Source of the DNA: a virus
IMG/VR virus record: IMGVR_UViG_3300022700_000208
Location: 1 to 64,000 of that record
Reading direction: 5' to 3' (one strand)
Length of the DNA stretch: 64,000 bases
Part shown: piece after piece, positions 3,025 through 53,425 of the stretch
How positions within the stretch are numbered: the stretch's first letter is position 1
Layout of the letters: the number at the start of each line of letters is the position of its first letter
Notes under the pieces: generated by a model
Database searches by the model: none
What the model was told of the DNA's origin: nothing
What the model saw: the letters and a program-made list of their open reading frames with translations, nothing else
Translations under genes and position numbers: made by a program

Positions 3025-4197
3025 TTATCCTCCAGATGAGTTGACTGTTTGTTCACAGTTGTATTCATAAGGACACATCAAACAGTCAGTATTCTCTGGA
3101 CTGTAGACATTGGGATCACCAAAGCAATCAGGTGCATTTGGGGGCTTATTGGAATTTTCCGAAGAGGAAGGAGCCTGAGCAGACTGCCCCGATTGTGGAG
3201 AAGGCGATGATGCAGGAGCTTGCTGACTTGCTTGCTGAGCTGGAGCAGCCTGCTGAGGCTGTGTTTGTGGTTGTGGCTGTTGAGCTTGCTGCTGTTGTGG
3301 AGGTGCAGAAGGCCCAACAGATTGGGTAGGTTGAGGAGCAGCTTGAGGTGGGGCTCCCTGGTTAGCCCCAGGTGAGGTTTCCATGCTGTTTGCTGTTTCT
3401 CCAGGATGTTGAGGTCCAGGGGTTGCATTGCCTGATGTGAGCCCCCCAAGCCGCTTTTTAAAACTTTCTCTTGTAGCTTCTGTGATCTGATGGATCTTTT
3501 TCATTCCATTATCATCAGGTGGAAGCCATGCGTTAATTTTGTCTAGATCATACATTTGTCCCAGAATTTGTTCGATTTCCTCATCCGTGGGAGCAATAGG
3601 ACTCTGGCCCCGAGCCACAGTCTTCTCAAAGGCTCCCCCATCACTTTTTCTCTTAAGGATTACATTGGCTCCCGTCTTGGGATCGGTTATATCGCCTATA
3701 TCCTCATCTATGAGGCTTTGATAAAGCCAGTCCTTCATATTCCCCGAGAAACCCATAATGCGGGGCTCTTTCGGGTTGAGGGCTTCATTTGTATGTCTCT
3801 TGGCAAATGCCTGGTCCTCAATCACAAGAACATTGGCAAAAGCTTTTCTTGAGGCTGCCCATTTGTCTAGATCCATTCGGCCATCAAATTCCTTAAGCAT
3901 CTCACAGAACGGACATTCCATTCCAAATGGAACAAGGCATAAAATCTTACTTGGGGGATACTGACTGGCCTGAGCTAGCTCATCAGGACAAATGATTGAG
4001 TAGTGGTAAGATATTTCTTTAGCTGGCTCACCTTTTTCATTGTACGGGGGCAAAAAGCGTACTTTAAATTGCTGTGTGTCCTTTGGAACTCTATAAAATT
4101 TCCTGTTTCCTCCAGATCCACTGCTTGCCCCAACTGGCTTGTGTTCTTTGCTCTTTTCGAGAGTCTGCTTGATCTTGCTGAAATCGAGTTTATGCAT
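3025..4197 (-). CDS. T4 gp32-like single-stranded DNA-binding protein with Q/P-rich linker and C-terminal Cys4 motif
   Basis: VRFLPP, CPFCE, ANVLVIED, GDITDPKTG, YDLD motifs typical of gp32-like SSBs; next to recA. Confidence 0.8.
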   Translation of the reverse strand: MHKLDFSKIKQTLEKSKEHKPVGASSGSGGNRKFYRVPKDTQQFKVRFLPPYNEKGEPAKEISYHYSIICPDELAQASQYPPSKILCLVPFGMECPFCEMLKEFDGRMDLDKWAASRKAFANVLVIEDQAFAKRHTNEALNPKEPRIMGFSGNMKDWLYQSLIDEDIGDITDPKTGANVILKRKSDGGAFEKTVARGQSPIAPTDEEIEQILGQMYDLDKINAWLPPDDNGMKKIHQITEATRESFKKRLGGLTSGNATPGPQHPGETANSMETSPGANQGAPPQAAPQPTQSVGPSAPPQQQQAQQPQPQTQPQQAAPAQQASQQAPASSPSPQSGQSAQAPSSSENSNKPPNAPDCFGDPNVYSPENTDCLMCPYEYNCEQTVNSSGG

Positions 4198-4230
4198 GGC
4201 AATCTCCTGTATCTTTATTTGTTCCTTTTG

Positions 4231-4272: not shown

Positions 4273-4312
4273 ATACAGGAGAAAAAATTTGAAAAAAGTT
4301 TAATGCACTGAG

Positions 4313-4783
4313 TTAATCACTCAGCGCATCATACTTTGTATAAGAAAGAGCTGATTTATTGGCTTTAACCTTAATATAATCAAATGGAATAGCCGAAACT
4401 TGATCCACTTTAAGGTTTTCCCTCTCAAAGGATTTAAAAACATCTCGATTGGAAGAAAAATAATGATCTGTGATTCCGACAGATCCCCATTTTGGTTTTA
4501 CGACATACCGATAAGCAAAAACAGTCTCAACTACCTTTCTAGGACTGTATAGCCAAATGGATCTAAAGATGGAAGGATTAATATGCCCTGATCCATTTTC
4601 ATTTCTTAAATAAACTGGAATGTGCTTATTGTTTCCTTCTTCATCTGAGCAAACTGTCCATGTATTAGATCCATCTGTTATTTTATCTCCAATTAAGATC
4701 TCACTTCCAAAGATACATTTTGTGGAGATAAAGTTTTCCAGATTGACTAATTTTCCTGTGTGTTTTTCTTCTTTCCAACTCAT
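4313..4783 (-). CDS. hypothetical protein
   Basis: 156 aa ORF with SD GAGGT. Confidence 0.65.
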   Translation of the reverse strand: MSWKEEKHTGKLVNLENFISTKCIFGSEILIGDKITDGSNTWTVCSDEEGNNKHIPVYLRNENGSGHINPSIFRSIWLYSPRKVVETVFAYRYVVKPKWGSVGITDHYFSSNRDVFKSFERENLKVDQVSAIPFDYIKVKANKSALSYTKYDALSD

Positions 4784-15489: not shown

Positions 15490-15616
15490 GTTCTTATTTA
15501 AGACTATGTACAACCCAGGGGAAGATGCACCTCCTCAGTTTCAAACCGAAGGTGGAATTATATTCACTAAACAATATATCCCTATCTTACAAGAAAAGTT
15601 GGAATTGAAAAGATAG

Positions 15617-15958
15617 TTGATTGAGGGGTTTATGAGTCACTATAGCAATGATCCACAGAATGTGAGAGTTGATTTCTTTAAGCCATCGGGAAAGTGGTAT
15701 GCCACTGAGCAAGTAACAATGGTGGGTTGGAGGGGAGATGAAGTTCTCATTCATGATTCTTTAGTTGATGCTCTAGATAATTTGGAGAGAAAGGATGGAG
15801 GGCCTCTATTTAGGGGGATGCAAGTTATTTGCCTTGAGCCTTATCATGAGTTTTCTCATCCCATTTCAATAAAAGAATGGAATGGAAAAGAGGAGTGGTT
15901 AAAAGAGAAGGCTGAAATTAAAAGGAAAATTGGGATGGACCAGGGACTTGAACCCTAA
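15617..15958 (+). CDS. conserved phage hypothetical protein
   Basis: VRVDFFKPSGKWY motif; probable start ATG 15632. Confidence 0.7.
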   Translation: MIEGFMSHYSNDPQNVRVDFFKPSGKWYATEQVTMVGWRGDEVLIHDSLVDALDNLERKDGGPLFRGMQVICLEPYHEFSHPISIKEWNGKEEWLKEKAEIKRKIGMDQGLEP

Positions 15959-16018
15959 CCTGAAATATATTTCAAAAATTTCTTGATCTTGAAATATATT
16001 TAACCGATCCTGAATTCT

Positions 16019-16078
16019 ATGAAGTTTTTAAACCGAGCCCGCACAACCTGGACAGAGGGAGGCTACAGTATGATGTAG
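16019..16078 (+). CDS. Attenuator leader peptide 1 MKFLNRARTTWTEGGYSMM
   Basis: Codon run ACA ACC TGG ACA GAG GGA GGC matches the downstream Thr/Trp/Glu/Gly tRNAs; no SD, possibly leaderless. Confidence 0.8.
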   Translation: MKFLNRARTTWTEGGYSMM

Positions 16079-16148
16079 TTTGGGGCTTGGTGCGATCAAA
16101 ACCGAATTGAAGAAATAGAACCCAAGCCCAAAGAGCTTGGGTTTTTTA
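16033..16148 (+). promoter_or_regulatory. Transcription attenuator of tRNA operon 1
   Basis: Segment 1 CCGAGCCC (16033-40), segment 2 GGGCTTGG (16083-90), segment 3 CCAAGCCC (16122-29), segment 4 GCTTGGGTT plus U-tract. Confidence 0.85.
16119..16148 (+). terminator. Attenuator terminator 1
   Basis: AACCCAAGC-ccaaaga-GCTTGGGTT-TTTT, 5 nt before tRNA-Glu. Confidence 0.9.
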
Positions 16149-16152
16149 TTTT

Positions 16153-16228
16153 GCGGCTATCGTCTAATGGTTAAGGATACCAGACTTTCTATCTGGGGAT
16201 GGGGGTTCAAATCCCCCTGGCCGCGCCA
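16153..16228 (+). tRNA. tRNA-Glu(TTC)
   Basis: Cloverleaf, CCAGA-CTTTCTA-TCTGG, TTCAAAT, encoded CCA. Confidence 0.93.
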
Positions 16229-16231
16229 TAT

Positions 16232-16308
16232 CCGTTAGTAGCTCAATTGGCTAGAGCGCCTGACTTCCAATCAGGAGGCTGTGGGTTCGAGCCCCACCTA
16301 GCGGTCCA
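16232..16308 (+). tRNA. tRNA-Gly(TCC)
   Basis: CCTGA-CTTCCAA-TCAGG, ends TCCA. Confidence 0.93.
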
Positions 16309-16309
16309 T

Positions 16310-16383
16310 AGGAGGGTGATCTAATGGTAAGAGCACAGACTCCAAATCTGTGAATGTTGGTTCAAGTCCAGCCCTTCCTGCCA
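16310..16383 (+). tRNA. tRNA-Trp(CCA)
   Basis: ACAGA-CTCCAAA-TCTGT, ends GCCA. Confidence 0.93.
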
Positions 16384-16384
16384 T

Positions 16385-16461
16385 GCCTCTGTAGCTCAAT
16401 TGGCTAGAGCAGCGGTCTTGTAAACCGAAGGTTGGGTGTTCGAGTCACCCCAGGGGCTCCA
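16385..16461 (+). tRNA. tRNA-Thr(TGT)
   Basis: GCGGT-CTTGTAA-ACCGA, ends TCCA. Confidence 0.93.
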
Positions 16462-16565
16462 TTTTTCAAAAAATGCAGACTAGAATTGGGGATTTTTGAT
16501 TTTCAAATTTCTACTTGAGATTTTTTAAGGCTTGTCCGATTATAGAAGGGACTTAAGAGGAGATT

Positions 16566-16643
16566 ATGCAAACACTACGCATAGCCATGATTTTTAATGT
16601 GGATAGAGCGGATAGAGTCCTAGGTAAGGAGGGCATGGCGTAG
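16566..16643 (+). CDS. Attenuator leader peptide 2 MQTLRIAMIFNVDRADRVLGKEGMA
   Basis: SD AGAGGAG; codons ATA, ATG, ATT, TTT, AAT, GAT, AGA, GAT, AGA match all downstream tRNA anticodons. Confidence 0.88.
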   Translation: MQTLRIAMIFNVDRADRVLGKEGMA

Positions 16644-16709
16644 GTTTGTATTAAGTTACAGTTTGATTTTGGAAACCTAACCCAGGCCCTAAAAAGCCTG
16701 GGTTTTTTT
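16569..16709 (+). promoter_or_regulatory. Transcription attenuator of tRNA operon 2
   Basis: Antiterminator 16630-47 pairs 16673-90 (15/18 bp); protector 16569-89 pairs 16634-48. Confidence 0.88.
16679..16709 (+). terminator. Attenuator terminator 2
   Basis: AACCCAGGC-cctaaaaa-GCCTGGGTT-TTTTT, directly before the tRNA. Confidence 0.9.
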
Positions 16710-16711
16710 AT

Positions 16712-16787
16712 TCCTGGGTATCTTAATTGGCAAAGAACCCGCCTCATAAGCGGGGGTATGCTGGTTCAAGTCCAGCCCCAGGAACCA
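16712..16787 (+). tRNA. tRNA-CAT (Ile2 or Met)
   Basis: CCCGC-CTCATAA-GCGGG, ends ACCA. Confidence 0.88.
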
Positions 16788-16788
16788 T

Positions 16789-16860
16789 AGCTGGATAGCT
16801 CAAGGGTAGAGCATCTGACCGATAATCAGAAGGTTGCAGGTTCAAATCCTGCTCCAGCTA
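16789..16860 (+). tRNA. tRNA-Ile(GAT)
   Basis: TCTGA-CCGATAA-TCAGA (C33); followed by TCA rather than CCA. Confidence 0.88.
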
Positions 16861-16901
16861 TCATTTTAAAAGGAGAATTATTTATAATTAAAAAGTTATA
16901 T

Positions 16902-16977
16902 TCAGGGGTAGTTCAATTGGAAGAACGCGTGACTGTTAATCACGTAGTTGCTGGTTCGAGTCCAGCCCTCTGAGCCA
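16902..16977 (+). tRNA. tRNA-Asn(GTT)
   Basis: CGTGA-CTGTTAA-TCACG, ends GCCA. Confidence 0.93.
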
Positions 16978-16979
16978 AT

Positions 16980-17053
16980 TGCGGGATAGTGTAAAGGCAA
17001 CATGCAGGTCTCATAAGCCTGAGCTGGGTGTTCGAGTCACCCTCCCGCAACCA
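16980..17053 (+). tRNA. tRNA-Met(CAT), acceptor stem resembling fMet
   Basis: TGCGGGA/TCCCGCA acceptor; CAGGT-CTCATAA-GCCTG. Confidence 0.88.
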
Positions 17054-17055
17054 AT

Positions 17056-17132
17056 CTGAGAGTAGTTCAATTGGAGAGAACATTGCCCTTCTAAGGCAAA
17101 TGCTGAAGGTTCGAGTCCTTCCTCTCAGGCCA
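17056..17132 (+). tRNA. tRNA-Arg(TCT)
   Basis: TTGCC-CTTCTAA-GGCAA, ends GCCA. Confidence 0.93.
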
Positions 17133-17133
17133 T

Positions 17134-17209
17134 GCAGGGATAGCTCAGATGGTAGAGCACTGGATTGAAAATCCAGGTGTCAGTGGTTCAATTCCACTTC
17201 CCTGCACCA
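17134..17209 (+). tRNA. tRNA-Phe(GAA)
   Basis: CTGGA-TTGAAAA-TCCAG, ends ACCA. Confidence 0.93.
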
Positions 17210-17213
17210 ATTG

Positions 17214-17288
17214 GGGGCTGTGATGTAATGGCTAACATATCGGACTGTCTATCCGAAACTAGGGGTTCGATTCCCCTCAGCCCCGCCA
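17214..17288 (+). tRNA. tRNA-Asp(GTC)
   Basis: TCGGA-CTGTCTA-TCCGA, ends GCCA. Confidence 0.93.
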
Positions 17289-17447
17289 TCTTTGCCCCAA
17301 AGTTGCCCCATTCTTGCCCCAATTTCTTCCCTATTCCTGGAGTTGCCTACTGGAAAATTTCCAGAAGGTAACTTGATTGTATTATGCATTGCATATATCT
17401 TTGAAAAATATACTTGACGAAAACCTGGGCCTTGCATACATTGAAAA

Positions 17448-17556
17448 TCTATTGGCTACAGGGCCAATATCAAAAACAGAGCATGGAGCTTTGGTTCGGA
17501 GCCTTAGCAAAATGTTCTAGTTTTTGGAGCCAGGTATCTATCCTGGCTATTTTTTT
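17448..17556 (+). ncRNA. Candidate ~105-nt structured small RNA
   Basis: Promoter TTGACG-17-TACATT (17414-42), two hairpins, terminator AGCCAGG/CCTGGCT plus T-tract. Confidence 0.55.
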
Positions 17557-17618
17557 GCCTTCCTTTGACGCTTTGCATCCTTACAACTAGCCCTTTTTTA
17601 AAAATTTTTCGGGTTTTT

Positions 17619-17661
17619 TTGAGAACTAGCTCGGGTTTTATCGTTATGGGATAGTGAAGGG
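17619..17661 (+). promoter_or_regulatory. Conserved phage promoter motif, copy 3 (upstream of sbcD)
   Basis: TTGAGA-17-CGTTAT then GGGATAGTGAAGGG. Confidence 0.7.
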
Positions 17662-17686
17662 GAAGTACATCTTGAGAGGAAACAAC

Positions 17687-18727
17687 ATGGAGATAAACAA
17701 CAGGATTGGCATTTTCACGGACCAGCATTTAAGAAGCACTGGATCATTTCCACCTTTCAATAAGCTTTCCGAGTCAGGTCTTTCCAAGGAACTCGATAAC
17801 ATCATCAGAGGTTTTTACTTTGTTGCTGACCAAATAAGATCTTATAAGCCCAGGGCTGTATTCTCTTTGGGGGATGCCTTTCACAACCCTGAGGTGATAG
17901 ATGTCCCAACTCTTGAGGGAGCTTCAAGGGCCTTTGGGGTTGTTAAGAAGGCTTGTGATGAAGTAGGGGCTGATTTTTACATACTGGTTGGCAACCATGA
18001 TGTGGTCTCAGAGAATCCAACTCTTATCACTTCTGTTTCAGTTCTTGAGGGGTTTGGGCAAGTAATTAAAGAGCCCTACTTTATCGACATTGATGAGTTT
18101 ACTGTCTCAATGGTTCCTTATTCATCTAATCCCTCAAAGATGTATTCTCAGCTCAAGGAAGCTGAGGTTCAGTCAGATCTTATATTAACTCATATTGATG
18201 TAGCTGGATGCAGGTATGAAAACAATCATCTTTCTGAATCAGAGATAGATCCCACTTTTAAGGTGCCTGTTATTTCGGGGGATATTCACTTTAGTCAGCA
18301 TGTAGGAAGCGTTATATATCCAGGCTCTCTTGTACAAAACAAATTCACTAGATCTGATCTCAGTGGGATTGGTGGGGCTGCTTTCTATGATCTTGAAACA
18401 AAGGAATATCAGCTTGAGAGAAATATTTATTCAAAGCATTATGTCAAAGCCCATTCCATAGAGGAAGCCAAGAAGCATGATCCCAATCAAGTTATTATTC
18501 AACTTGTTACAGATGTTCCCAAGGAAGAGGCAGAAATTGAGCTTGAAGACTATGAATTTAATTATCTTCCTGCTCCAAAAGTTGATGATAATCTTGAAGT
18601 TGAGTATGAGAATGTTGGGATTGAATCTCCCGAAGTAGTCTTGAGAACTTATATCAATCAAGACCGTCCTAGTGCCCTTAAAAATTTTGATGAGACTTTG
18701 AAAAGTAGGAGTGAATCTAATGCATAA
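17687..18727 (+). CDS. sbcD: Mre11/SbcD-like nuclease (gp47-like)
   Basis: Metallophosphoesterase motifs DQH, GDAFH, GNHD, SGDIH, YPGS. Confidence 0.9.
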   Translation: MEINNRIGIFTDQHLRSTGSFPPFNKLSESGLSKELDNIIRGFYFVADQIRSYKPRAVFSLGDAFHNPEVIDVPTLEGASRAFGVVKKACDEVGADFYILVGNHDVVSENPTLITSVSVLEGFGQVIKEPYFIDIDEFTVSMVPYSSNPSKMYSQLKEAEVQSDLILTHIDVAGCRYENNHLSESEIDPTFKVPVISGDIHFSQHVGSVIYPGSLVQNKFTRSDLSGIGGAAFYDLETKEYQLERNIYSKHYVKAHSIEEAKKHDPNQVIIQLVTDVPKEEAEIELEDYEFNYLPAPKVDDNLEVEYENVGIESPEVVLRTYINQDRPSALKNFDETLKSRSESNA

Positions 18728-46881: not shown

Positions 46882-47214
46882 ATGTCAAAAGCAAAAGAAT
46901 TGAAAGAGAAATTCGATAAAACCAAACAAGGTCAGTCTGTATCTGAGCAAGGGACCAGCCCTAATAATGTTGCTAAGACAAGAGATCAAGTTGCAAAGAG
47001 ATTAGGTGCAGCTCAGAAAATTATGTCTAAGCCTGATCCTGAAAATTTAAAACAGATTGTACAGGGACATCTAGATGCTTTGGATGCTGTTAGGTCAGGT
47101 CTTGTTTCCATGTTTAAAAAAGAAGGAAATAAAGACATGCAAAAGGTAATAGATAAAGTTTCTGACTCAGAAAAAGAACTAAGAGACTTGGTTAAAAAAG
47201 AGGATTTTTTCTAA
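46882..47214 (+). CDS. protein, MSKA-leader family
   Basis: MSKAKELKEKF...VSE. Confidence 0.8.
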   Translation: MSKAKELKEKFDKTKQGQSVSEQGTSPNNVAKTRDQVAKRLGAAQKIMSKPDPENLKQIVQGHLDALDAVRSGLVSMFKKEGNKDMQKVIDKVSDSEKELRDLVKKEDFF

Positions 47215-47215
47215 T

Positions 47216-47446
47216 ATGTCCAAGGCAAAAAACTTGCTTACTTTGGTCTCAGAGGCCAGTAAGCCAAAAATTGAAAAGCTCAAGTCCATTTGGGAGGGCT
47301 TAAGCTCTAGACAGAAAAAAGAGTTAATGGCCCTTTATGCTTTCTCCGAGTTCAATGAAGAGTTTGATCACCTATCTTCTTATCAGAAGGAAGTGATGAT
47401 CAATAACCTAGAAGTAGCAGAATCATTTTCATCGAAGGAACACTAA
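47216..47446 (+). CDS. protein, MSKA-leader family
   Basis: MSKAKNLLTLVSE-A. Confidence 0.75.
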   Translation: MSKAKNLLTLVSEASKPKIEKLKSIWEGLSSRQKKELMALYAFSEFNEEFDHLSSYQKEVMINNLEVAESFSSKEH

Positions 47447-48012
47447 TGCTTATCACTGAAGACTCAGACCGTTGTTTTGTGATCAAAGATGGAAAGGCCA
47501 TAGCCATATCCGAGACTCCAGAAGGTCTTGATAATGGGGGCCGTGATGATGTCTATGCCTATGTGGTGGATGATGAGGAAGAAACCTATGCTCGGATGTT
47601 TGAGGCAGATTCAGATGATCATGCCATAACAAAAGCCAAGCTCAGCATGTATGAGAATGGCAATCATCGAGCGTATGTTGGAAAATTCCTAGGTAAGACA
47701 GAAGCAGGACCTATATTCAGGGATATGAACCTGATATATGCTGACATGGATGAGGGAGTGAATGAAGAGCTTAAAGAGTCCACTTCCAGAAGGCTAGTTA
47801 GGCAGTCTGTCAGATATGGAACTCAGTTCATCACAGCCAATGAGCAAGAAAGACAAAATCTTATGGGGGCCATCACTCTCCTCAACCAAGCTCAGTCAGC
47901 TAATGAGGATTCTCAAGCCAAAAAGCTTCTCACTCTTTCCCGCCGCGTGGCCAAGGGATCAATTGATGAAAAATCTCTTAGGAAAATCACTGGGGAAAGT
48001 AAGGAGGAGTAG
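47446..48012 (+). CDS. hypothetical head-region protein
   Basis: 188 aa, coupled. Confidence 0.7.
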   Translation: MLITEDSDRCFVIKDGKAIAISETPEGLDNGGRDDVYAYVVDDEEETYARMFEADSDDHAITKAKLSMYENGNHRAYVGKFLGKTEAGPIFRDMNLIYADMDEGVNEELKESTSRRLVRQSVRYGTQFITANEQERQNLMGAITLLNQAQSANEDSQAKKLLTLSRRVAKGSIDEKSLRKITGESKEE

Positions 48013-48558
48013 TTGGATTTATCCCTTGAGATGCTTTTCACAGTTTTGGCCCTATTTGTAGGGTTAGCTGGTCTTATTTGGAAGATGGTTGACTCCCTTA
48101 TCCAGAGACAGGAGTCTGCTAAAAAGCGGATTATTGAATCTGAAAAGCAATCTAAAAAGGAAGCCTTGGATAGGGAACTTGATGCCAATAAGAGACTTGA
48201 GGAAGAAAAGGCCCAGATCCAAAAGGAACTTGAAAAGCAAAAGCAGCGCCATGTTGATCAGCTCATTCAGGGAATAAGGGAAGAAATATCCAAGCTGGAC
48301 AAGAAACTAAGTCGTGTTCATGAGTCCTATATAGAGCTTAACACTAAGTTTGAGAGCAATGAGGACAAATATAATCAGGTCCTTACAGAGGTTCATGAGT
48401 TTTTTAAAACCACTAAAGCCAGATTCGACATGCTGGAAAAACAAGCCAGTAATCATGAGGCATCTATTGAAGACATAAAAACCAGGCTTATGGATATTGG
48501 AAATGATTTAGTGATTGTGAAAGATGCAGCCGATAAAGTGAGGTCAAGCAAAGGATGA
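48013..48558 (+). CDS. membrane-anchored coiled-coil protein
   Basis: N-terminal TM plus coiled coil. Confidence 0.7.
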   Translation: MDLSLEMLFTVLALFVGLAGLIWKMVDSLIQRQESAKKRIIESEKQSKKEALDRELDANKRLEEEKAQIQKELEKQKQRHVDQLIQGIREEISKLDKKLSRVHESYIELNTKFESNEDKYNQVLTEVHEFFKTTKARFDMLEKQASNHEASIEDIKTRLMDIGNDLVIVKDAADKVRSSKG

Positions 48559-49427
48559 AGTTTCACACCCTAGAAGATAAAAAAATGTTTCTCATTGAAT
48601 GTGGGAGGTCCGACCTCCTGGATAAGATTAATGAGTCCTACGAGCCCTCCCAGGAACTTCAGGAACTATTCCTTAAGAAAAGAAGAAAGAAGATCCCCAC
48701 TCTTAAGAACTTCAAAAAGTCTCAAGCCACATCCCAGCAGTGGAGGAAGAAACGCTTTAAGATGATGCGTGGCATTAAAGACTTTCATAAATCCACGTCG
48801 GGAAAGAGGTTTCACCGCGCCTTAGGTAGGTTCATTGCAACCAGGGATTTCAGAAGCAAGAGGTTTACCAGGGAGAACTATAATCTAGGAGAGGTGTGTG
48901 AGGTCCTCAAAGCCCTCTCAAGCGCTAAAACTCAATCCTACATAACCCTGGAGTATTATAAGCCAGCGGACAAACAAGCCGATTTTGAGCTTTTCATAGA
49001 GGAGATTGTTCCGATTATCGAACAGATTGAGAAAAGTCTAGTGGTCGGAAAGGAAATCAGTGAGGAGGAGCTTGATCTGCTGGTCAGGATAACTGATGAG
49101 AAGGTGATCCTAGACTACCTGGACAATAGTCAAGGAAGGTTCAATGCTCTTCATAGTTTCTGGGCTCACATGAATGAGATTGGTGATCCCAGTGAAATTG
49201 GTTTTTATCTTGATACTCTCAATTGCACCAAGCATTTGAATGAAGAGGGCAGGATTATATCCACGATTGCAGAAAGGACAGGCCACTCTTATCAGGAAGT
49301 GGAACGCTCTCATAACAGACATAAGGCCAATTTGGTTAAAGAGGGGATCAAAAAATACGAAAGTACGAATAATTCGTATTTTCCCCGATTATTTGACGGG
49401 ATCAAAAAGGACCTTAAACTAGACTAA
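48555..49427 (+). CDS. hypothetical basic head-region protein
   Basis: 290 aa before the protease gene. Confidence 0.7.
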   Translation: MKFHTLEDKKMFLIECGRSDLLDKINESYEPSQELQELFLKKRRKKIPTLKNFKKSQATSQQWRKKRFKMMRGIKDFHKSTSGKRFHRALGRFIATRDFRSKRFTRENYNLGEVCEVLKALSSAKTQSYITLEYYKPADKQADFELFIEEIVPIIEQIEKSLVVGKEISEEELDLLVRITDEKVILDYLDNSQGRFNALHSFWAHMNEIGDPSEIGFYLDTLNCTKHLNEEGRIISTIAERTGHSYQEVERSHNRHKANLVKEGIKKYESTNNSYFPRLFDGIKKDLKLD

Positions 49428-49462
49428 ATTCCCGTTTAACTGTCTCAAAAATAGATTCAACT

Positions 49463-49497
49463 CGTAAAAATTTTTATTTCCGTTTTCCTAATAGAGG
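49463..49497 (+). promoter_or_regulatory. Putative late promoter, copy 2
   Basis: CGTAAAAATTTTTATTTCCGTTTTCCTAATAGAGG. Confidence 0.7.
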
Positions 49498-49540
49498 CAT
49501 CTGTCTTTTTTATTCGAGCAAGGTCTAAGGAGAAAAGCGC

Positions 49541-51025
49541 ATGGGTGATCCAGCTCAAGATTTAGGTCCTAATTCCAATGAGGTTTTGGGAGTATTTGAA
49601 CCTGATGCTGGCTTCAGACTTGAAGAAGCAAATGGTGAAGTTGGGGGAAAGCATGTCTTAGGTCGAGTTAAGGGAACTTTCTTTGTTCCAGAAGGGGTTT
49701 CCCGCAATAACCGATACTACCCCAAGGAGTTATGGGAGAGGGTTGTCCAAGATCCCATGATCAAAAAGCGTCTTGAGGAAAGGCGCATGTTTGGGACCAT
49801 CAGCCATGAGCAACCCTTGGATGATAAAGCTCTCCTTGATGGAAAGATCAGCCATATTATCACTGATCTTCAGATCAAGGAAGGAAAGCAGGGATACGGG
49901 GAAGCCTTAATACTCGACACCCCTGCTGGGAATATTCTCTATCGAGTTCTCCAGGCAGGAGCCAAGTTATTTGTCTCCTCTAGGGCCAATGGCCAATTCA
50001 AGGGAGAAGAAAGGGGAATACCTAAAGTTGATCCAGAAACATTTCAACTGAATACTTTTGATTTCGTTATGGACCCTGGTTTTGTTCAGGCTAATCCACA
50101 GATGGAAAGTCTTCAGGAAGCGTTGAATAAACTAAAGAAACTTGAGGAGACTATGGGACAGCAAAATAATAATCAACCAAATCAAGAAAACAATAAATCA
50201 CAAGGAGATGAGCAAATGGGCCAACAGAATAATCAGGATCTTTTAGAAAAGCTCTCCAAGCAAAACAGTGACCTGGAGCAGCAACTCGACACTGCCACAA
50301 AAGAGGTTGAGCGTCTTAAGGAAGAGAACACCACTCTTACGGATGAGAACAATAACCTCAAAGAGGAAATGAAAAACCACAAGCAACTTACAGAGGAAGT
50401 TGAAAAATATCGAAAGCTTGGAACTCCTGAAGAGATTGAAGAGGCTTTTGAGTCCGCTGAAAAACTCCATGAGGATAATAAAAAGATCACTGAGGAACTT
50501 GGCTCTGCTGAGGAAATTGAGGAATCAATTGATGCAGCTACAAGCCTCATCGAAGAATACAAAGAGCTTGGCTCTCCCAGTGAGGTCAGTGAAGCTCTTG
50601 ATGCAGCAGAAAAGACAATTGATGAGTATGCTGAATATGGAACTCCTGATGAAATCGGTCAGGTCTTTGAACGTGCTGAAAGCATGGTTGAAGAGAAAAA
50701 GCAAGAGAAGGAATCCAAAGAGGTTGCTCAGCTTGCTTCTGAAATTGGAGTTTCGGAAGAAAAAGTCCGAACTCTTTATGGAAAAGTCTCCAATGAAGAA
50801 ATCAAGAAAGTTCTTGGGGAAGGCAAGAAAGACTCAGAGAAACCAGGAAAATCTGAGTCTCTTACTGAGCGCTTCAAGAAAAAAGGAACAAGTGAAAACA
50901 AAGATTCCAGTGAAGGTGAAGATGAAGGTGAAAAGAAAACTCCCTTCAATGAATCTGGAGTCAATCGCTTGTTAAAACGAACAGGTCCTGTCCGCAAGGA
51001 AGATCCTGTTGAGAGTCCTCGATAA
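49541..51025 (+). CDS. Prohead protease (gp21-like) fused to scaffold (gp22-like)
   Basis: SRNNRYYP, GTISH, ILDTPAG, VSSRANG, FDFVMDPGF; acidic coiled coil with Y..LG[TS]PEE repeats. Confidence 0.9.
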   Translation: MGDPAQDLGPNSNEVLGVFEPDAGFRLEEANGEVGGKHVLGRVKGTFFVPEGVSRNNRYYPKELWERVVQDPMIKKRLEERRMFGTISHEQPLDDKALLDGKISHIITDLQIKEGKQGYGEALILDTPAGNILYRVLQAGAKLFVSSRANGQFKGEERGIPKVDPETFQLNTFDFVMDPGFVQANPQMESLQEALNKLKKLEETMGQQNNNQPNQENNKSQGDEQMGQQNNQDLLEKLSKQNSDLEQQLDTATKEVERLKEENTTLTDENNNLKEEMKNHKQLTEEVEKYRKLGTPEEIEEAFESAEKLHEDNKKITEELGSAEEIEESIDAATSLIEEYKELGSPSEVSEALDAAEKTIDEYAEYGTPDEIGQVFERAESMVEEKKQEKESKEVAQLASEIGVSEEKVRTLYGKVSNEEIKKVLGEGKKDSEKPGKSESLTERFKKKGTSENKDSSEGEDEGEKKTPFNESGVNRLLKRTGPVRKEDPVESPR

Positions 51026-51114
51026 AGGATTTCTTAGTTAGTTTGTGGTCTGGACTTCAGGGGCAAACTACGGGGAAACAAAAACAAACCAAACTGACTA
51101 AGGAGATTGCGAAA

Positions 51115-52548
51115 ATGCAAGGTCAAATGAATGAAGATTCAAAATTACAGGCCATTGATAAAATGGCAGAACAATATTATGAGCGCTATCGAAACAACAT
51201 GGACGCTCTTGAGCAGTCCTTGAACTGCTCCATCAAAAAAGATGGCCTCGATGCAAATGATGTTTTTGCATTGGGAAGCCAGCTCGAAAAGTTTGAAAAC
51301 TTTGTCGAGATGTGTGAGGAAGTCGGTAACACAAACCTTCTTGGCACCCTTCCCAAAATCGGTATGGACGTGATCACAGCAGTACATGGTTCTTCCATTA
51401 TTCCTGTTGTGGCTTCTGTTCAGCCTATTGAGGAAGAGTCTGGCTTGGTTTGGTTCAAGACTGTTCGCAGTGAAAACACTCGTGGTTCTCAGACAGCAGG
51501 CGATGTTGTCCGTGATCCTCGAACAGGCACTGTCTATCCTCAAGGCTATGCTTCGGGCCGAATTCAGAATGAGCAGGAAGCTACATCAGGTGCTCAGTTC
51601 ACCTATAGTTTCACTCTCAGTTTTCCTCCGATCCGAAGTGAAAGTCTCCGTCTTGAGCTTTCTCAAAACTCAGATGTTTTTGCTCGTGATGTTGGCCCTC
51701 AGGGTGCTGACAAAAACATCGGGACATTGCTTGGAGCAGGTGTCAGCGGTACAGTGAATTACACAACTGGCCAAGTTGATGTTGAGTTCACTAGCGATCC
51801 TGGCGCTGGCAATATGGTTATGGAATATCAACAGAACTTTGAGCGTTCTTCTGATATTCCTCAGATCCAGAACTTCTTTGACTCAAAGCAAGTTCGCGCT
51901 CATCCGTACACATTGAAAGCCACATTCGGCATGATCCAAGACTTCACTATGAGAAAGCGTTTTGGCTTTTCTGCCCAAGACAGCTTGTCAGAAGATCTTG
52001 TCACTGAAATCAATAAGGAAGTTGGTGGAGATCTTATCCGCTTGATCGACGCGGTTAAGCTTGGCTCTGAGAACTTTGATGCCAGCGCACCTTCTGGTGT
52101 TTCCTTTTTCGAGCATAAGCAAACGTACAAAGACGTTCTTGCTCGGGCCACTACAAACCTCATTAACAATGCAGGTCGTGGTCAGATTTCAGTGCTCATT
52201 GCAGGCTTGGATCACACAGCCATTATCCAGACACTTCCTGGCTTCCAGCGTGTGTCTGATGGTTCTGCTCTTGGAACTCAAGTGATCGGAACCTTGGATG
52301 GTATGACAGTGGTTCAGGTGAAGGATACTAACCTTCTTGCAACCAATCGCGCATTGGCCATTTGGAAAGGTCCGACACCTTTTGAAGCACCTGCTGTCTG
52401 GTCTCCGTTTATGCCTCTTGCCACTACAGGAACTCTTCCTGAGTCTCCTAACCCGTTAGTTAGCATGAAAGCTGGAGCTGTTGTGGGTGCCGTTGAATCA
52501 CTGGTTCCTCAGTTTGCCACTGAGATCACTATCAGTAACGCACCTTAA
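51115..52548 (+). CDS. Major capsid protein (T4 gp23-like)
   Basis: VASVQPI, LKATF...QD, EINKEV, PAVWSPFMPL; SD AAGGAG before ATG 51115. Confidence 0.9.
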   Translation: MQGQMNEDSKLQAIDKMAEQYYERYRNNMDALEQSLNCSIKKDGLDANDVFALGSQLEKFENFVEMCEEVGNTNLLGTLPKIGMDVITAVHGSSIIPVVASVQPIEEESGLVWFKTVRSENTRGSQTAGDVVRDPRTGTVYPQGYASGRIQNEQEATSGAQFTYSFTLSFPPIRSESLRLELSQNSDVFARDVGPQGADKNIGTLLGAGVSGTVNYTTGQVDVEFTSDPGAGNMVMEYQQNFERSSDIPQIQNFFDSKQVRAHPYTLKATFGMIQDFTMRKRFGFSAQDSLSEDLVTEINKEVGGDLIRLIDAVKLGSENFDASAPSGVSFFEHKQTYKDVLARATTNLINNAGRGQISVLIAGLDHTAIIQTLPGFQRVSDGSALGTQVIGTLDGMTVVQVKDTNLLATNRALAIWKGPTPFEAPAVWSPFMPLATTGTLPESPNPLVSMKAGAVVGAVESLVPQFATEITISNAP

Positions 52549-52572
52549 GGCATTCTTAGTATAAACCAATAA

Positions 52573-52607
52573 TAATGGAGGGGAGATATCTCCCCTCCAT
52601 TTCTTTG
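52573..52607 (+). terminator. Intrinsic terminator after MCP
   Basis: AATGGAGGGGAGA-TA-TCTCCCCTCCATT then TCTTT. Confidence 0.8.
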
Positions 52608-52639
52608 ACTGAGCATCTAATAAACCTGGAGATTTTATT

Positions 52640-53425
52640 ATGGCTTTTGAAATTATCAATAATTTTAAAGGAAGAAAGACAATCAAGGTAAGAAACCAAG
52701 AACCTCTTGTTTTCCCAAATCCTGGGGATTCCCTCAAATTCAACTCTTTTAGTGAATATTTACCCTATCGTGACATGATCATTGCCGAGATTCAGAGGAA
52801 TCATCTGAAGTGGAAAGGTGAGCCTTTTGAAGAGGATACTCTTCCACCCAAGCAAGGCAAAATTAACAGCAAGGATGAAATATCCCCTAAAGGGGTTGAG
52901 TACAATTGGACATCTGTCCAAGAGACTCAAAAAGGAGAGGCTACAGTTCAAGAGCTTAATGGAGAGCAAAGAACTCTTATGGAGGAAGATTCTCCTCAAT
53001 CTCAGGAGCAGCAGCCACAACCTTCTGAGGCCATTCAGAAATTGGCTAATGCTCAGCCTAGTGAGGATGATGAGGTGGATACAACTCCTGTTCATGAAAA
53101 AGTGAAAGAGCTTACTGAAGAAGAGAAATCTTCTCAGCCTTCTGGAGAGGAAAAGGAAGCTAGTCAACCCCAGACAAAGAAGAAAAAGAAAAAGAAAGCA
53201 AAGGCATCCAAAAAGGCTTCTAAAAAGAAAACAGCTAAGAAAAAAGCCTCCACTAAACAATCATCGGATGAGGCTTCCTCTGGAGATTTAGGGGCTAAAA
53301 AAGAACAGTTGGCTCAATTGACTGAAAAGCTCAAGACCACTCCCAGAGATCAGATGGAAAGAAGGACAAAGCTTAAGAGCCAAATGAAAGAGATCAAAAA
53401 GGAAATTGCTCAGTTAGAAGGCTAA
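52640..53425 (+). CDS. hypothetical protein with Lys/Ala-rich histone-like stretch
   Basis: KKKKKKKAKASKKASKKKTAKKK. Confidence 0.75.
   Translation: MAFEIINNFKGRKTIKVRNQEPLVFPNPGDSLKFNSFSEYLPYRDMIIAEIQRNHLKWKGEPFEEDTLPPKQGKINSKDEISPKGVEYNWTSVQETQKGEATVQELNGEQRTLMEEDSPQSQEQQPQPSEAIQKLANAQPSEDDEVDTTPVHEKVKELTEEEKSSQPSGEEKEASQPQTKKKKKKKAKASKKASKKKTAKKKASTKQSSDEASSGDLGAKKEQLAQLTEKLKTTPRDQMERRTKLKSQMKEIKKEIAQLEG

Follow-up and report, generated by a model that had tools for sequence, protein, structure and literature searches.

Enterobacterial amino-acid operons such as ilvGMEDA (Ile, Val and Leu) and thr (Thr and Ile) are controlled by multivalent leader-peptide attenuators. These combine a short open reading frame (ORF) containing several kinds of control codon, the alternative helices 1:2, 2:3 and 3:4, and an intrinsic terminator; a stalled ribosome favours the antiterminator. 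A combination of sequence features of this kind was found twice in the DNA analysed here (the window), which comprises the first 64000 bases of the 81645-base virus record IMGVR_UViG_3300022700_000208, a record estimated to be 52% complete and derived from an uncultured phage. Judged from its sequence features, the region 16515-16709 (attenuator 2) is probably a ribosome-mediated, tRNA-sensing attenuator that gates seven tRNA genes at 16712-17288 (block 2), with a sister element at 15971-16151 (attenuator 1) gating four tRNA genes at 16153-16461 (block 1). A preliminary description of this DNA had read the region before block 2 as a leader-peptide attenuator, and our analysis supported that reading: all computable features were present, each of them better than its control.

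The logic is that of classical ribosome-mediated attenuation; the target, tRNA genes, and the sensing of the product differ from known cases. Whereas the ilvGMEDA and thr attenuators gate biosynthetic enzymes, the window loci would gate seven and four tRNA genes, which stand where classical attenuators have genes for biosynthetic enzymes or synthetases. The ilvGMEDA and thr leaders contain runs of codons for few amino acids, in contrast to the one to two codons found here for each of six or seven tRNAs. Unlike in those operons, the sensed molecules would be the products of the gated genes, and no sequence relationship was detected (no Rfam leader match). The trpL leader shares with the window loci the three-helix logic and a stop codon beside segment 2, but it senses a single amino acid, regulates enzymes and belongs to a host chromosome. 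In the pheST (pheM) attenuator and in T-box elements, as proposed for the window loci, a component of the translation apparatus is regulated by the state of a specific tRNA. However, pheM regulates a synthetase and not a tRNA, and the T-box binds uncharged tRNA directly, without a ribosome; no T-box was matched in 15500-17700.

The trn operon of Anabaena sp. PCC 7120, a long tRNA array, is induced under translational stress (PMC8421152, available text). Like the window blocks under the proposed reading, these accessory tRNA genes are silent by default and are switched on once translation is impaired. According to the same text, its control resides in direct repeats of the promoter that are thought to bind a repressor, and the terms 'attenuat', 'leader peptide' and 'terminator' do not occur there. 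Leader-peptide attenuation of tRNA genes is not described in the available text of PMC4810235, PMC7412058, PMC3556154 or PMC8421152. A full-text literature search also returned no such description, a provisional result, as the 1980s literature on T5 and T4 and supplementary files lay outside its scope.

In the proposed mechanism, transcription of attenuator 2 would begin near 16550 and a ribosome would load on a leader of 25 codons. With ample aminoacyl-tRNAs for ATA, ATG, ATT, TTT, AAT, GAT and AGA, the ribosome would reach the stop codon (16641-16643) and cover segment 2. Segment 3 would then pair with segment 4, and the terminator at 16679-16709 would free the transcript 2 nt before the first tRNA. 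Slow decoding of any control codon would instead stall the ribosome within 16581-16616, where it would cover segment 1; segment 2 would pair with segment 3, no terminator would form, and the polymerase would enter the tRNA genes. Without translation, segments 1 and 2 would pair and the terminator would form. A shortage of a tRNA would in this way turn on its own gene and supply would turn it off, and since the gated tRNAs themselves decode the control codons, the circuit would be a closed loop. The likely benefit would be demand-driven tRNA synthesis, the demand arising in hosts whose tRNA pool is unfit for the A/T-rich codons of the phage, or from the depletion of host tRNAs during infection.

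Leader codons and the tRNA blocks behind them

The 11 tRNA genes, on which ARAGORN and Rfam agreed, were all located on the + strand in two blocks, and no further tRNA was present anywhere in the 81645-base record. Block 1 (16153-16461) consisted of Glu(TTC), Gly(TCC), Trp(CCA) and Thr(TGT). Block 2 (16712-17288) consisted of a tRNA with the anticodon CAT, Ile(GAT), Asn(GTT), a second CAT tRNA, Arg(TCT), Phe(GAA) and Asp(GTC).

Between a weak promoter-like site and a terminator, as expected of leader-peptide attenuators, lay a short translatable ORF of 25 codons (leader ORF 2, 16566-16643, + strand, MQTLRIAMIFNVDRADRVLGKEGMA). The promoter-like site (16515-16543, + strand; TTGAGA, 17 nt, GATTAT) matched the consensus at 9 of 12 positions and would place the transcription start near 16550. 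The Shine-Dalgarno (SD)-like sequence AGAGGAG that had been described before the ORF was read directly at 16556-16562 (+ strand), with the ATG at 16566. Its spacing from the ATG is just 3 nt, or 5 nt if AAGAGG is taken as the core. Codons 6-17 (16581-16616, + strand) also read as described: ATA GCC ATG ATT TTT AAT GTG GAT AGA GCG GAT AGA. Among them, ATA, ATG, ATT, TTT, AAT, GAT and AGA, together with a second GAT and a second AGA, name all seven tRNAs of block 2. The smallest window covering all seven tRNA classes spanned 9 codons (codons 6-14), provided that one CAT tRNA reads ATA. The preliminary claim that the leader lists all seven tRNAs was therefore upheld as regards the dense codon list, which beat the null models given below, whereas the full count of seven depends on one of the CAT tRNAs being tRNA-Ile2. 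The accompanying description of ATA and AGA as rare codons was wrong for the phage's own usage, in which ATA occurs at 16.8 per 1000 and AGA, the commonest Arg codon, at 21.9 per 1000. If these codons were limiting, this would be owing to the host rather than to phage usage.

The covering window of leader 2 was rare by each of three measures. Nine-codon windows covering seven classes numbered 4 of 163238 in the six frames of the 81645-base record, and the sole case on the + strand was leader 2. Seven classes in 9 codons were matched by any ORF in 44 of 100000 dinucleotide shuffles of the 250-base spacer, and by 35 of 300000 random 24-codon ORFs drawn from phage codon usage. A conservative count, in which both CAT tRNAs formed one class and the start codon was excluded, left six classes in 7 codons (M I F N V D R), as found in 83 of 50000 shuffles. 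The signal of leader 2 sits in this dense covering window and not in the overall cognate count.

Leader ORF 1 (16019-16078, + strand, 19 codons, MKFLNRARTTWTEGGYSMM) followed a short predicted 5' untranslated region. Its control codons (16043-16063, + strand) were ACA ACC TGG ACA GAG GGA GGC, encoding T T W T E G G, and within them TGG ACA GAG GGA cover the four block 1 tRNAs in four codons. Such four-in-four coverage was equalled by 67 of 100000 spacer shuffles and occurred in 2 of 163268 six-frame windows. A run like T-T-W-T-E-G-G, with all residues drawn from T, W, E and G, appeared in 8 of 50000 shuffles, and no seven-residue run restricted to these four was present among the 22790 residues of the phage's 91 long ORFs. 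Both leaders thus contain clustered control codons matching the genes behind them. Neither covers the tRNA set of the other block; the two leaders divide codons as the two blocks divide tRNAs.

Two other explanations bear on these codon lists. The hairpins might be ordinary terminators of the upstream units (the gene at 15617-15958 and block 1, respectively), with leaky read-through into the tRNA genes, and the ORFs chance frames in A/T-rich DNA. Since phage tRNAs tend to serve the commonest phage codons, some overlap between leader and block is expected, and over the whole ORFs the enrichment was not significant (p = 0.11 and 0.13). Dense covering windows were nevertheless rare under all three null models, and the coincidence occurred twice, each leader matching its own block and not the other's. 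We consider such a chance origin very unlikely. Alternatively, the elements could be coupled to translation and yet serve as a general gauge of translation capacity or charging, so that any slowing of the ribosome within a leader, whether by starvation, by stress aimed at ribosomes or by host shut-off, would open both blocks and the codons would be merely typical of the phage. This is the less surprising of the two, although still unlikely. The mechanism cannot separate a missing from an uncharged tRNA, a property established for attenuators of the trp and his type. General translational stress is known to induce one bacterial tRNA array, although there a promoter and a repressor are involved (PMC8421152, available text). 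A general gauge would not need two leaders that split the codons exactly as the blocks split the tRNAs.

Alternative RNA structures

The RNA of attenuator 2 contained the segments of a three-helix switch. Segment 1, the 5' arm of the protector helix, comprised codons 1-8 (16566-16589, + strand). Segment 2 (16630-16651, + strand) contained the stop codon TAG (16641-16643) and can pair with either segment 1 or segment 3. Segment 3 (16673-16690, + strand), the 3' arm of the antiterminator, included the 5' arm of the terminator. Intrinsic terminator 2 (16679-16709, + strand), located between the leader and the regulated genes, consisted of a 9-bp GC-rich stem (AACCCAGGC/GCCTGGGTT) with an 8-nt loop, followed by a T run that ended 2 nt before the first tRNA. 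As there is no room for a promoter between 16709 and 16712, block 2 can be transcribed only by read-through of this terminator, and the equally short gap behind terminator 1 puts block 1 in the same position.

The structural features put forward in the preliminary description were all recovered. The antiterminator (16630-16647 with 16673-16690), which overlaps the terminator stem, was paired at 15 of 18 positions by hand count, with a duplex energy of -21.1 kcal/mol. Its start about 13 nt after the last control codon was borne out by the coordinates, as segment 2 begins 13 nt past the last control AGA. A protector competing for the 5' arm of the antiterminator was present in the minimum-free-energy fold as the helix 16567-16589 with 16634-16651 (duplex -24.1 kcal/mol). 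In 2000 dinucleotide shuffles, the energy of the antiterminator duplex was reached by 12 and that of the protector by 5.

The full-length minimum-energy fold of attenuator 2 combined protector and terminator (-45.7 kcal/mol, z = -2.33). Without segment 1, the antiterminator (2:3) became the minimum-energy structure, even when the 3' arm of the terminator was included. A fold begun at 16632, which drops the first 2 nt of segment 2 and mimics a ribosome near the stop codon, brought the terminator hairpin back. The first control codon abuts segment 1. With a ribosome footprint of the usual size assumed, a ribosome at the stop codon would mask segment 2, and a ribosome on the control codons would mask segment 1 but not segment 2.

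In attenuator 1, segment 1 had the core CCGAGCCC (16032-16044, + strand) and formed a protector duplex of -17.8 kcal/mol, reached by 27 of 2000 shuffles. Segment 2 (TTTGGGGCTTGGT, 16079-16091, + strand) began directly after the stop codon of leader 1. Segment 3 and intrinsic terminator 1 (16117-16151, + strand; CCCAAGC/GCTTGGG and a T run) ended 2 nt before tRNA-Glu, and the antiterminator duplex (-16.7 kcal/mol) was reached by 23 of 2000 shuffles. The full-length minimum-energy fold again combined protector and terminator (-45.4 kcal/mol, z = -3.68). In both attenuators, therefore, the antiterminator draws on the 5' arm of the terminator, and a protector located further upstream contends for the 5' arm of the antiterminator. 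Because the 2:3 duplex of attenuator 1 is about as stable as its terminator hairpin (-16.0 kcal/mol), the order of folding would decide read-through. Folding order is likewise held to decide in the trp attenuator, and attenuator 1 resembles trpL in having a terminator about as stable as its antiterminator.

These structures speak further against chance ORFs in front of ordinary terminators, as the protector and antiterminator pairings beat shuffled sequences and a stop codon lies in or beside segment 2 in both leaders (inside it in leader 2, directly before it in leader 1). A third explanation is that the hairpins serve timing, through a phage antitermination factor or a modified polymerase, or the stability of the tRNA precursor or the entry of RNases, and that the ORFs have no role. 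Antitermination by dedicated factors is widespread among phages. Timing or processing would, however, leave unexplained the codon lists, the co-variation of leaders and arrays described below, and the fact that alternative pairings overlap the ORFs. No known element was detected: a search with Rfam cmscan of 15500-17700 (E <= 1) returned 25 matches, which were the 11 tRNAs and sub-threshold hits overlapping tRNAs or terminators, and included no leader, T-box or riboswitch family. We regard this explanation as extremely improbable.

The two terminators differ by a compensatory A-T to G-C change (CCCAAGC...GCTTGGG at 16121-16145; CCCAGGC...GCCTGGG at 16681-16706) and were the only matches to their shared pattern within the window. 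On these sequence grounds, terminators 1 and 2 are paralogous. The remainder of the two spacers gave no convincing alignment; apart from the terminators, the spacers were alike at the leader ends and showed little likeness otherwise. Each leader ends with an internal SD-like stretch (GGGAGG in 16056-16078, AAGGAGG in 16626-16643) followed by ATG, one codon and TAG. Such an end could be a mini-ORF, or a motif at which ribosomes pause immediately ahead of segment 2.

The promoter-like site of attenuator 1 (15971-16000, + strand; TTCAAA, 18 nt, TATATT) was weak and overlapped a repeat. A 12-nt direct repeat, TGAAATATATTT, was located just upstream of leader 1 at 15961-15972 and 15990-16001, 29 nt apart, and its second copy overlaps the promoter-like -10 hexamer. 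The repeat could be an operator or a phage-specific promoter element.

Similar loci in other phages

Two scans of viral contigs looked for T runs with a common tRNA D-arm behind them, using patterns blind to the ORFs upstream. They yielded 123 T-run/tRNA records. In 66 of these, a hairpin of <= -7 kcal/mol immediately preceded the T run, and 56 were unique with enough upstream sequence. At each locus an ORF was picked by position alone: it had to begin with ATG, span 10-60 codons and stop no more than 60 nt ahead of the hairpin. It was then compared with the coding background of the locus. Four of the nine multi-tRNA loci with such an ORF were enriched in cognate codons at p < 0.05 (Fisher combined p = 2.9e-4), the nine not being fully independent, as L064 is related to L076 and L074 perhaps to L126. 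Random re-pairing of leaders and tRNA sets reached the observed multi-tRNA statistic in 8 of 20000 trials, and in a calibration with mismatched leader/tRNA-set pairs 4 of 68 had p < 0.05 (median p 0.50). None of the 18 single-tRNA loci had p < 0.05 (Fisher p = 0.76). A terminator directly before a single tRNA is thus common without any leader signal, as expected if such hairpins were ordinary terminators. Since most loci of the wider screen lacked the signal, the attenuator design is not universal.

Loci were grouped by architecture when they combined a promoter, a mini-ORF, a terminator about 25 nt or less from the first tRNA, a codon match, and pairing of the ORF 3' end with the terminator 5' arm. 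The window locus had this architecture, and further members were L112, L126, L065, L055, a 10-variant lineage and the phage phiCbK. In L112, an array of Thr Asn Pro Ser Ser followed the leader MKTLNTTNSSTAPVNLGGLLL, in which all five classes were covered in seven codons; among 2000 shuffles, this window was matched or beaten at a rate of 0.001 when scored by distinct tRNA classes and of 0.0015 when scored by cognate codons. This locus (near 4295-4560, - strand) had a TTGTAA/TATAAT promoter with the leader start a few nt after the -10 box, an antiterminator in codons 16-19, and a terminator 9 nt before the array. It is the best independent small-block example of the screens. In L126, Trp Cys followed the leader MIKPVTTTFCWCPKQGAMS; in L065, two tRNA-Asn followed an ORF with eight Asn codons; L055 had the array Gly Phe Ile Lys Glu. 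In all four loci, the ORF 3' end paired with the terminator 5' arm once the 3' arm was excluded. L160 also scored well, with an unclear antiterminator. L132 scored well too and was rejected as a leader, its ORF probably being the end of a gene.

The lineage (L313-L322, L053, L061, L064, L069, L076) offered several variants of one design. A consensus promoter (TTGACA-17-TATAAT) was followed by a nearly leaderless ORF of 22-25 codons ending GGG GTT CGT TTG TAA, before tRNA arrays that differ between members. The codons GGG GTT CGT are perfectly complementary to ACGAACCC at the terminator base, and compensatory changes were visible in the terminator stems of different members. A motif scan found 15 loci with 12 different leaders, 10 of which were scored; L317 and L319, with <1 kb downstream, and the repeats (L321 = L314, L053 = L061, L069 = L064) were left out. 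Against their own arrays, 91 of the 183 codons of the 10 leaders matched, compared with a re-paired mean of 81.9 (sd 3.8); the own-array value was reached by 1430 of 100000 re-pairings, a figure that is not corrected for shared ancestry. Where the leader contains Pro codons, 3 of 5 arrays include tRNA-Pro, as against 0 of 5 where it contains none; the corresponding figures are 3 of 4 and 0 of 6 for tRNA-Ala, and 4 of 7 and 0 of 3 for tRNA-Ser. In L318, an 80-nt gap lies where its relative L313 has a tRNA-His, and the gap sequence is similar to the beginning of the tRNA-His gene, so that a tRNA there may have escaped ARAGORN.

PhiCbK (JX100813) is a cultured Caulobacter phage whose record annotates rho-independent terminators before the tRNA blocks. 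The segment analysed (L203) corresponds to 47000-53000, with leader sites at 2541-2770 and 4342-4503 within it. The 45-aa gp083, in which Ser, Leu, Pro and Lys abound, stands before the block Pro Pro Lys Lys Leu Leu Leu Ser Ser. The block Phe Val Ile Ile Val Gln Gln is preceded by an ORF that lacks annotation (MSKTYRQFVRQIQVVRNI..., MSKTYRQFVRQIQ...) and follows a TTGACA promoter. In shuffle tests, two of three blocks passed: the gp083 block was matched by 44 of 3000 shuffles and the unannotated-ORF block by 1 of 3000, whereas the Glu-Asp block was not significant (1593 of 3000 shuffles). PhiCbK thus resembles the window loci in its order of promoter, short ORF made of the block's amino acids, terminator and tRNA block. 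It differs from the window phage in being unrelated and GC-rich, with different leaders and with one terminator 129 nt before the first tRNA. The word 'attenuat' does not occur in the available text of its genome paper (PMC3556154). As a cultured phage, phiCbK could serve as an experimental model. Small ORFs were also present among the tRNA genes of T5 (NC_005859, 24000-46000); T5 was rejected as an example, as no terminator separated ORF and tRNA. One of these ORFs, T5.070 (L082 10628-10756, - strand; 42 aa), directly precedes tRNA-Cys, again with no terminator between; with its six Cys spaced CxC/CxxC, it is more suggestive of a zinc ribbon than of a leader.

The terminator motif shared by the window loci was followed by a tRNA array in 8 of 11 hits in viral contigs, and by a tRNA in 2 of 118 matches in metagenome contigs. 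It was rejected as a family marker: the 8 viral-contig hits represent one phage sampled eight times, and the motif is generic, as ordinary terminators would be. Because only 2 of the 118 metagenome matches precede a tRNA, the likeness of the window terminators to those of the loci termed group B is probably not homology. The group B leader (MKRIDLHKNYLQVISWAFIPGTSHGRALSVS) contains 18 different amino acids in 31 residues. Only a weak antiterminator was found in group B, the generic test gave 605 of 3000, and no cultured relative was detected, so that group B is a suggestive example at most. Record G007 (L043) contained a 23-tRNA array.

The occurrence of the same combination in independent phage lineages is not expected of chance frames before leaky terminators. 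In favour of an unspecific translation gauge, the leaders of large arrays, that of group B for example, do look like broad samplers; against it, the re-pairing tests showed block-specific matching. On a wider reading, which is reasonably likely, phage tRNA arrays are commonly under closed-loop, multivalent leader-peptide attenuators serving host range or counter-defence, with tRNAs produced on demand where the host pool fits badly or where host anticodon nucleases have depleted it. These would be the first attenuators in which the sensed molecule is the product of the regulated gene.

Weight of the evidence, genomic setting and implications

Several observations count against tRNA-sensing attenuation. 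The covering-window statistic was picked after the finding had been seen, and a generic statistic gave 20 of 3000 and 50 of 3000 shuffles for the two leaders. Over the whole ORF, 10 of 24 codons were cognate in leader 2 (background 0.283; binomial p = 0.11) and 5 of 18 in leader 1 (p = 0.13), neither of which is significant. In leader 1, two of the seven core codons, ACC and GGC, are unread by the UGU and UCC anticodons at strict wobble; this leader also lacks an SD sequence, and its attenuator still folded the terminator as the minimum-energy structure when segment 1 was masked. Both promoters are weak consensus matches of a kind of which 9 sites occurred in 3.5 kb, with 7.0 expected. Elsewhere, most loci of the wider screen were non-significant with the generic statistic, and two leaders of the lineage retain codons for tRNAs that are missing from their arrays (Pro in L316, Pro and Ala in L320). 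Listing all seven tRNAs of block 2 requires one CAT tRNA to be tRNA-Ile2, for which Ile2 and elongator Met are both candidates. Finally, no relative with the tRNA module was found by blastn, neighbour-protein or pattern searches. The nearest phages by flanking proteins (40-51% identity) had no tRNA genes at the corresponding place, and one of them, estimated to be 98% complete, had no tRNA gene at all.

The identity of the CAT tRNAs was approached by comparison. Inspected by hand, each had position 1-72 paired and an anticodon stem without three G-C pairs at its base, so neither looks like a standard initiator. Searches with blastn against E. coli genomes gave no tRNA hit for either. The first CAT tRNA had one unannotated hit in the phage collection. 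The second matched 23 phage records; any tRNA annotated under the match was tRNA-Met, the default label for CAT. Global alignment to the three characterised CAT tRNAs of T5 did not discriminate between the possibilities.

The searches for relatives proceeded from the locus and from its neighbours. With blastn, 15500-17700 matched 1174 records of the phage collection, in the tRNA parts only, and none covered 80% of the query. Of two exact-pattern scans based on tRNA anticodon arms, one gave no match and the other a single locus without tRNA. The next gene downstream of the tRNAs (17687-18727) encodes an SbcD-like nuclease (PHROG 100, E = 9e-30). A single-protein search of viral contigs with it found no relative; an alignment-based search returned six loci (24-40% identity), in none of which a tRNA was present. 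A homologue with 64% identity was present on a 4.1-kb contig. A 113-aa protein encoded upstream led to two loci (51% identity), and their records contained no tRNA. Since the phage with the 51% homologue is estimated to be 98% complete and has no tRNA genes, the entire tRNA module, both attenuators included, appears to have been inserted in this lineage. This nearest homologue (51%) of the protein upstream of the module (L001/L002, viral contigs, 4001-4222) ends about 30 residues earlier. No known function was found for the small proteins encoded upstream of the module.

Downstream of block 2, a terminator-like hairpin with a T run (17528-17555, + strand) would close the tRNA transcription unit. 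After the 3' end of tRNA-Thr, CATTTTTCAAAAAA (16442-16468) was flagged by the scan only as a weak terminator-like site. Given this weakness, transcripts of block 1 may continue into leader 2, in which case attenuator 2 would gate the read-through from block 1 as well.

Why phages carry tRNA genes is a long-standing question, and the regulation of those genes is almost unstudied. If the closed-loop reading is true, the window provides a clean two-operon example, and classical attenuation would gain stable RNA genes as a new class of target and would include genuine feedback by the product. The elements, which are small and self-contained, could also serve as compact sensors of the availability of individual tRNAs. 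For the phages themselves, it would mean that they gauge the host tRNA pool and top it up only where needed, which would bear on host range, on codon-usage mismatch and on the escape from tRNA-cleaving defences such as host anticodon nucleases.

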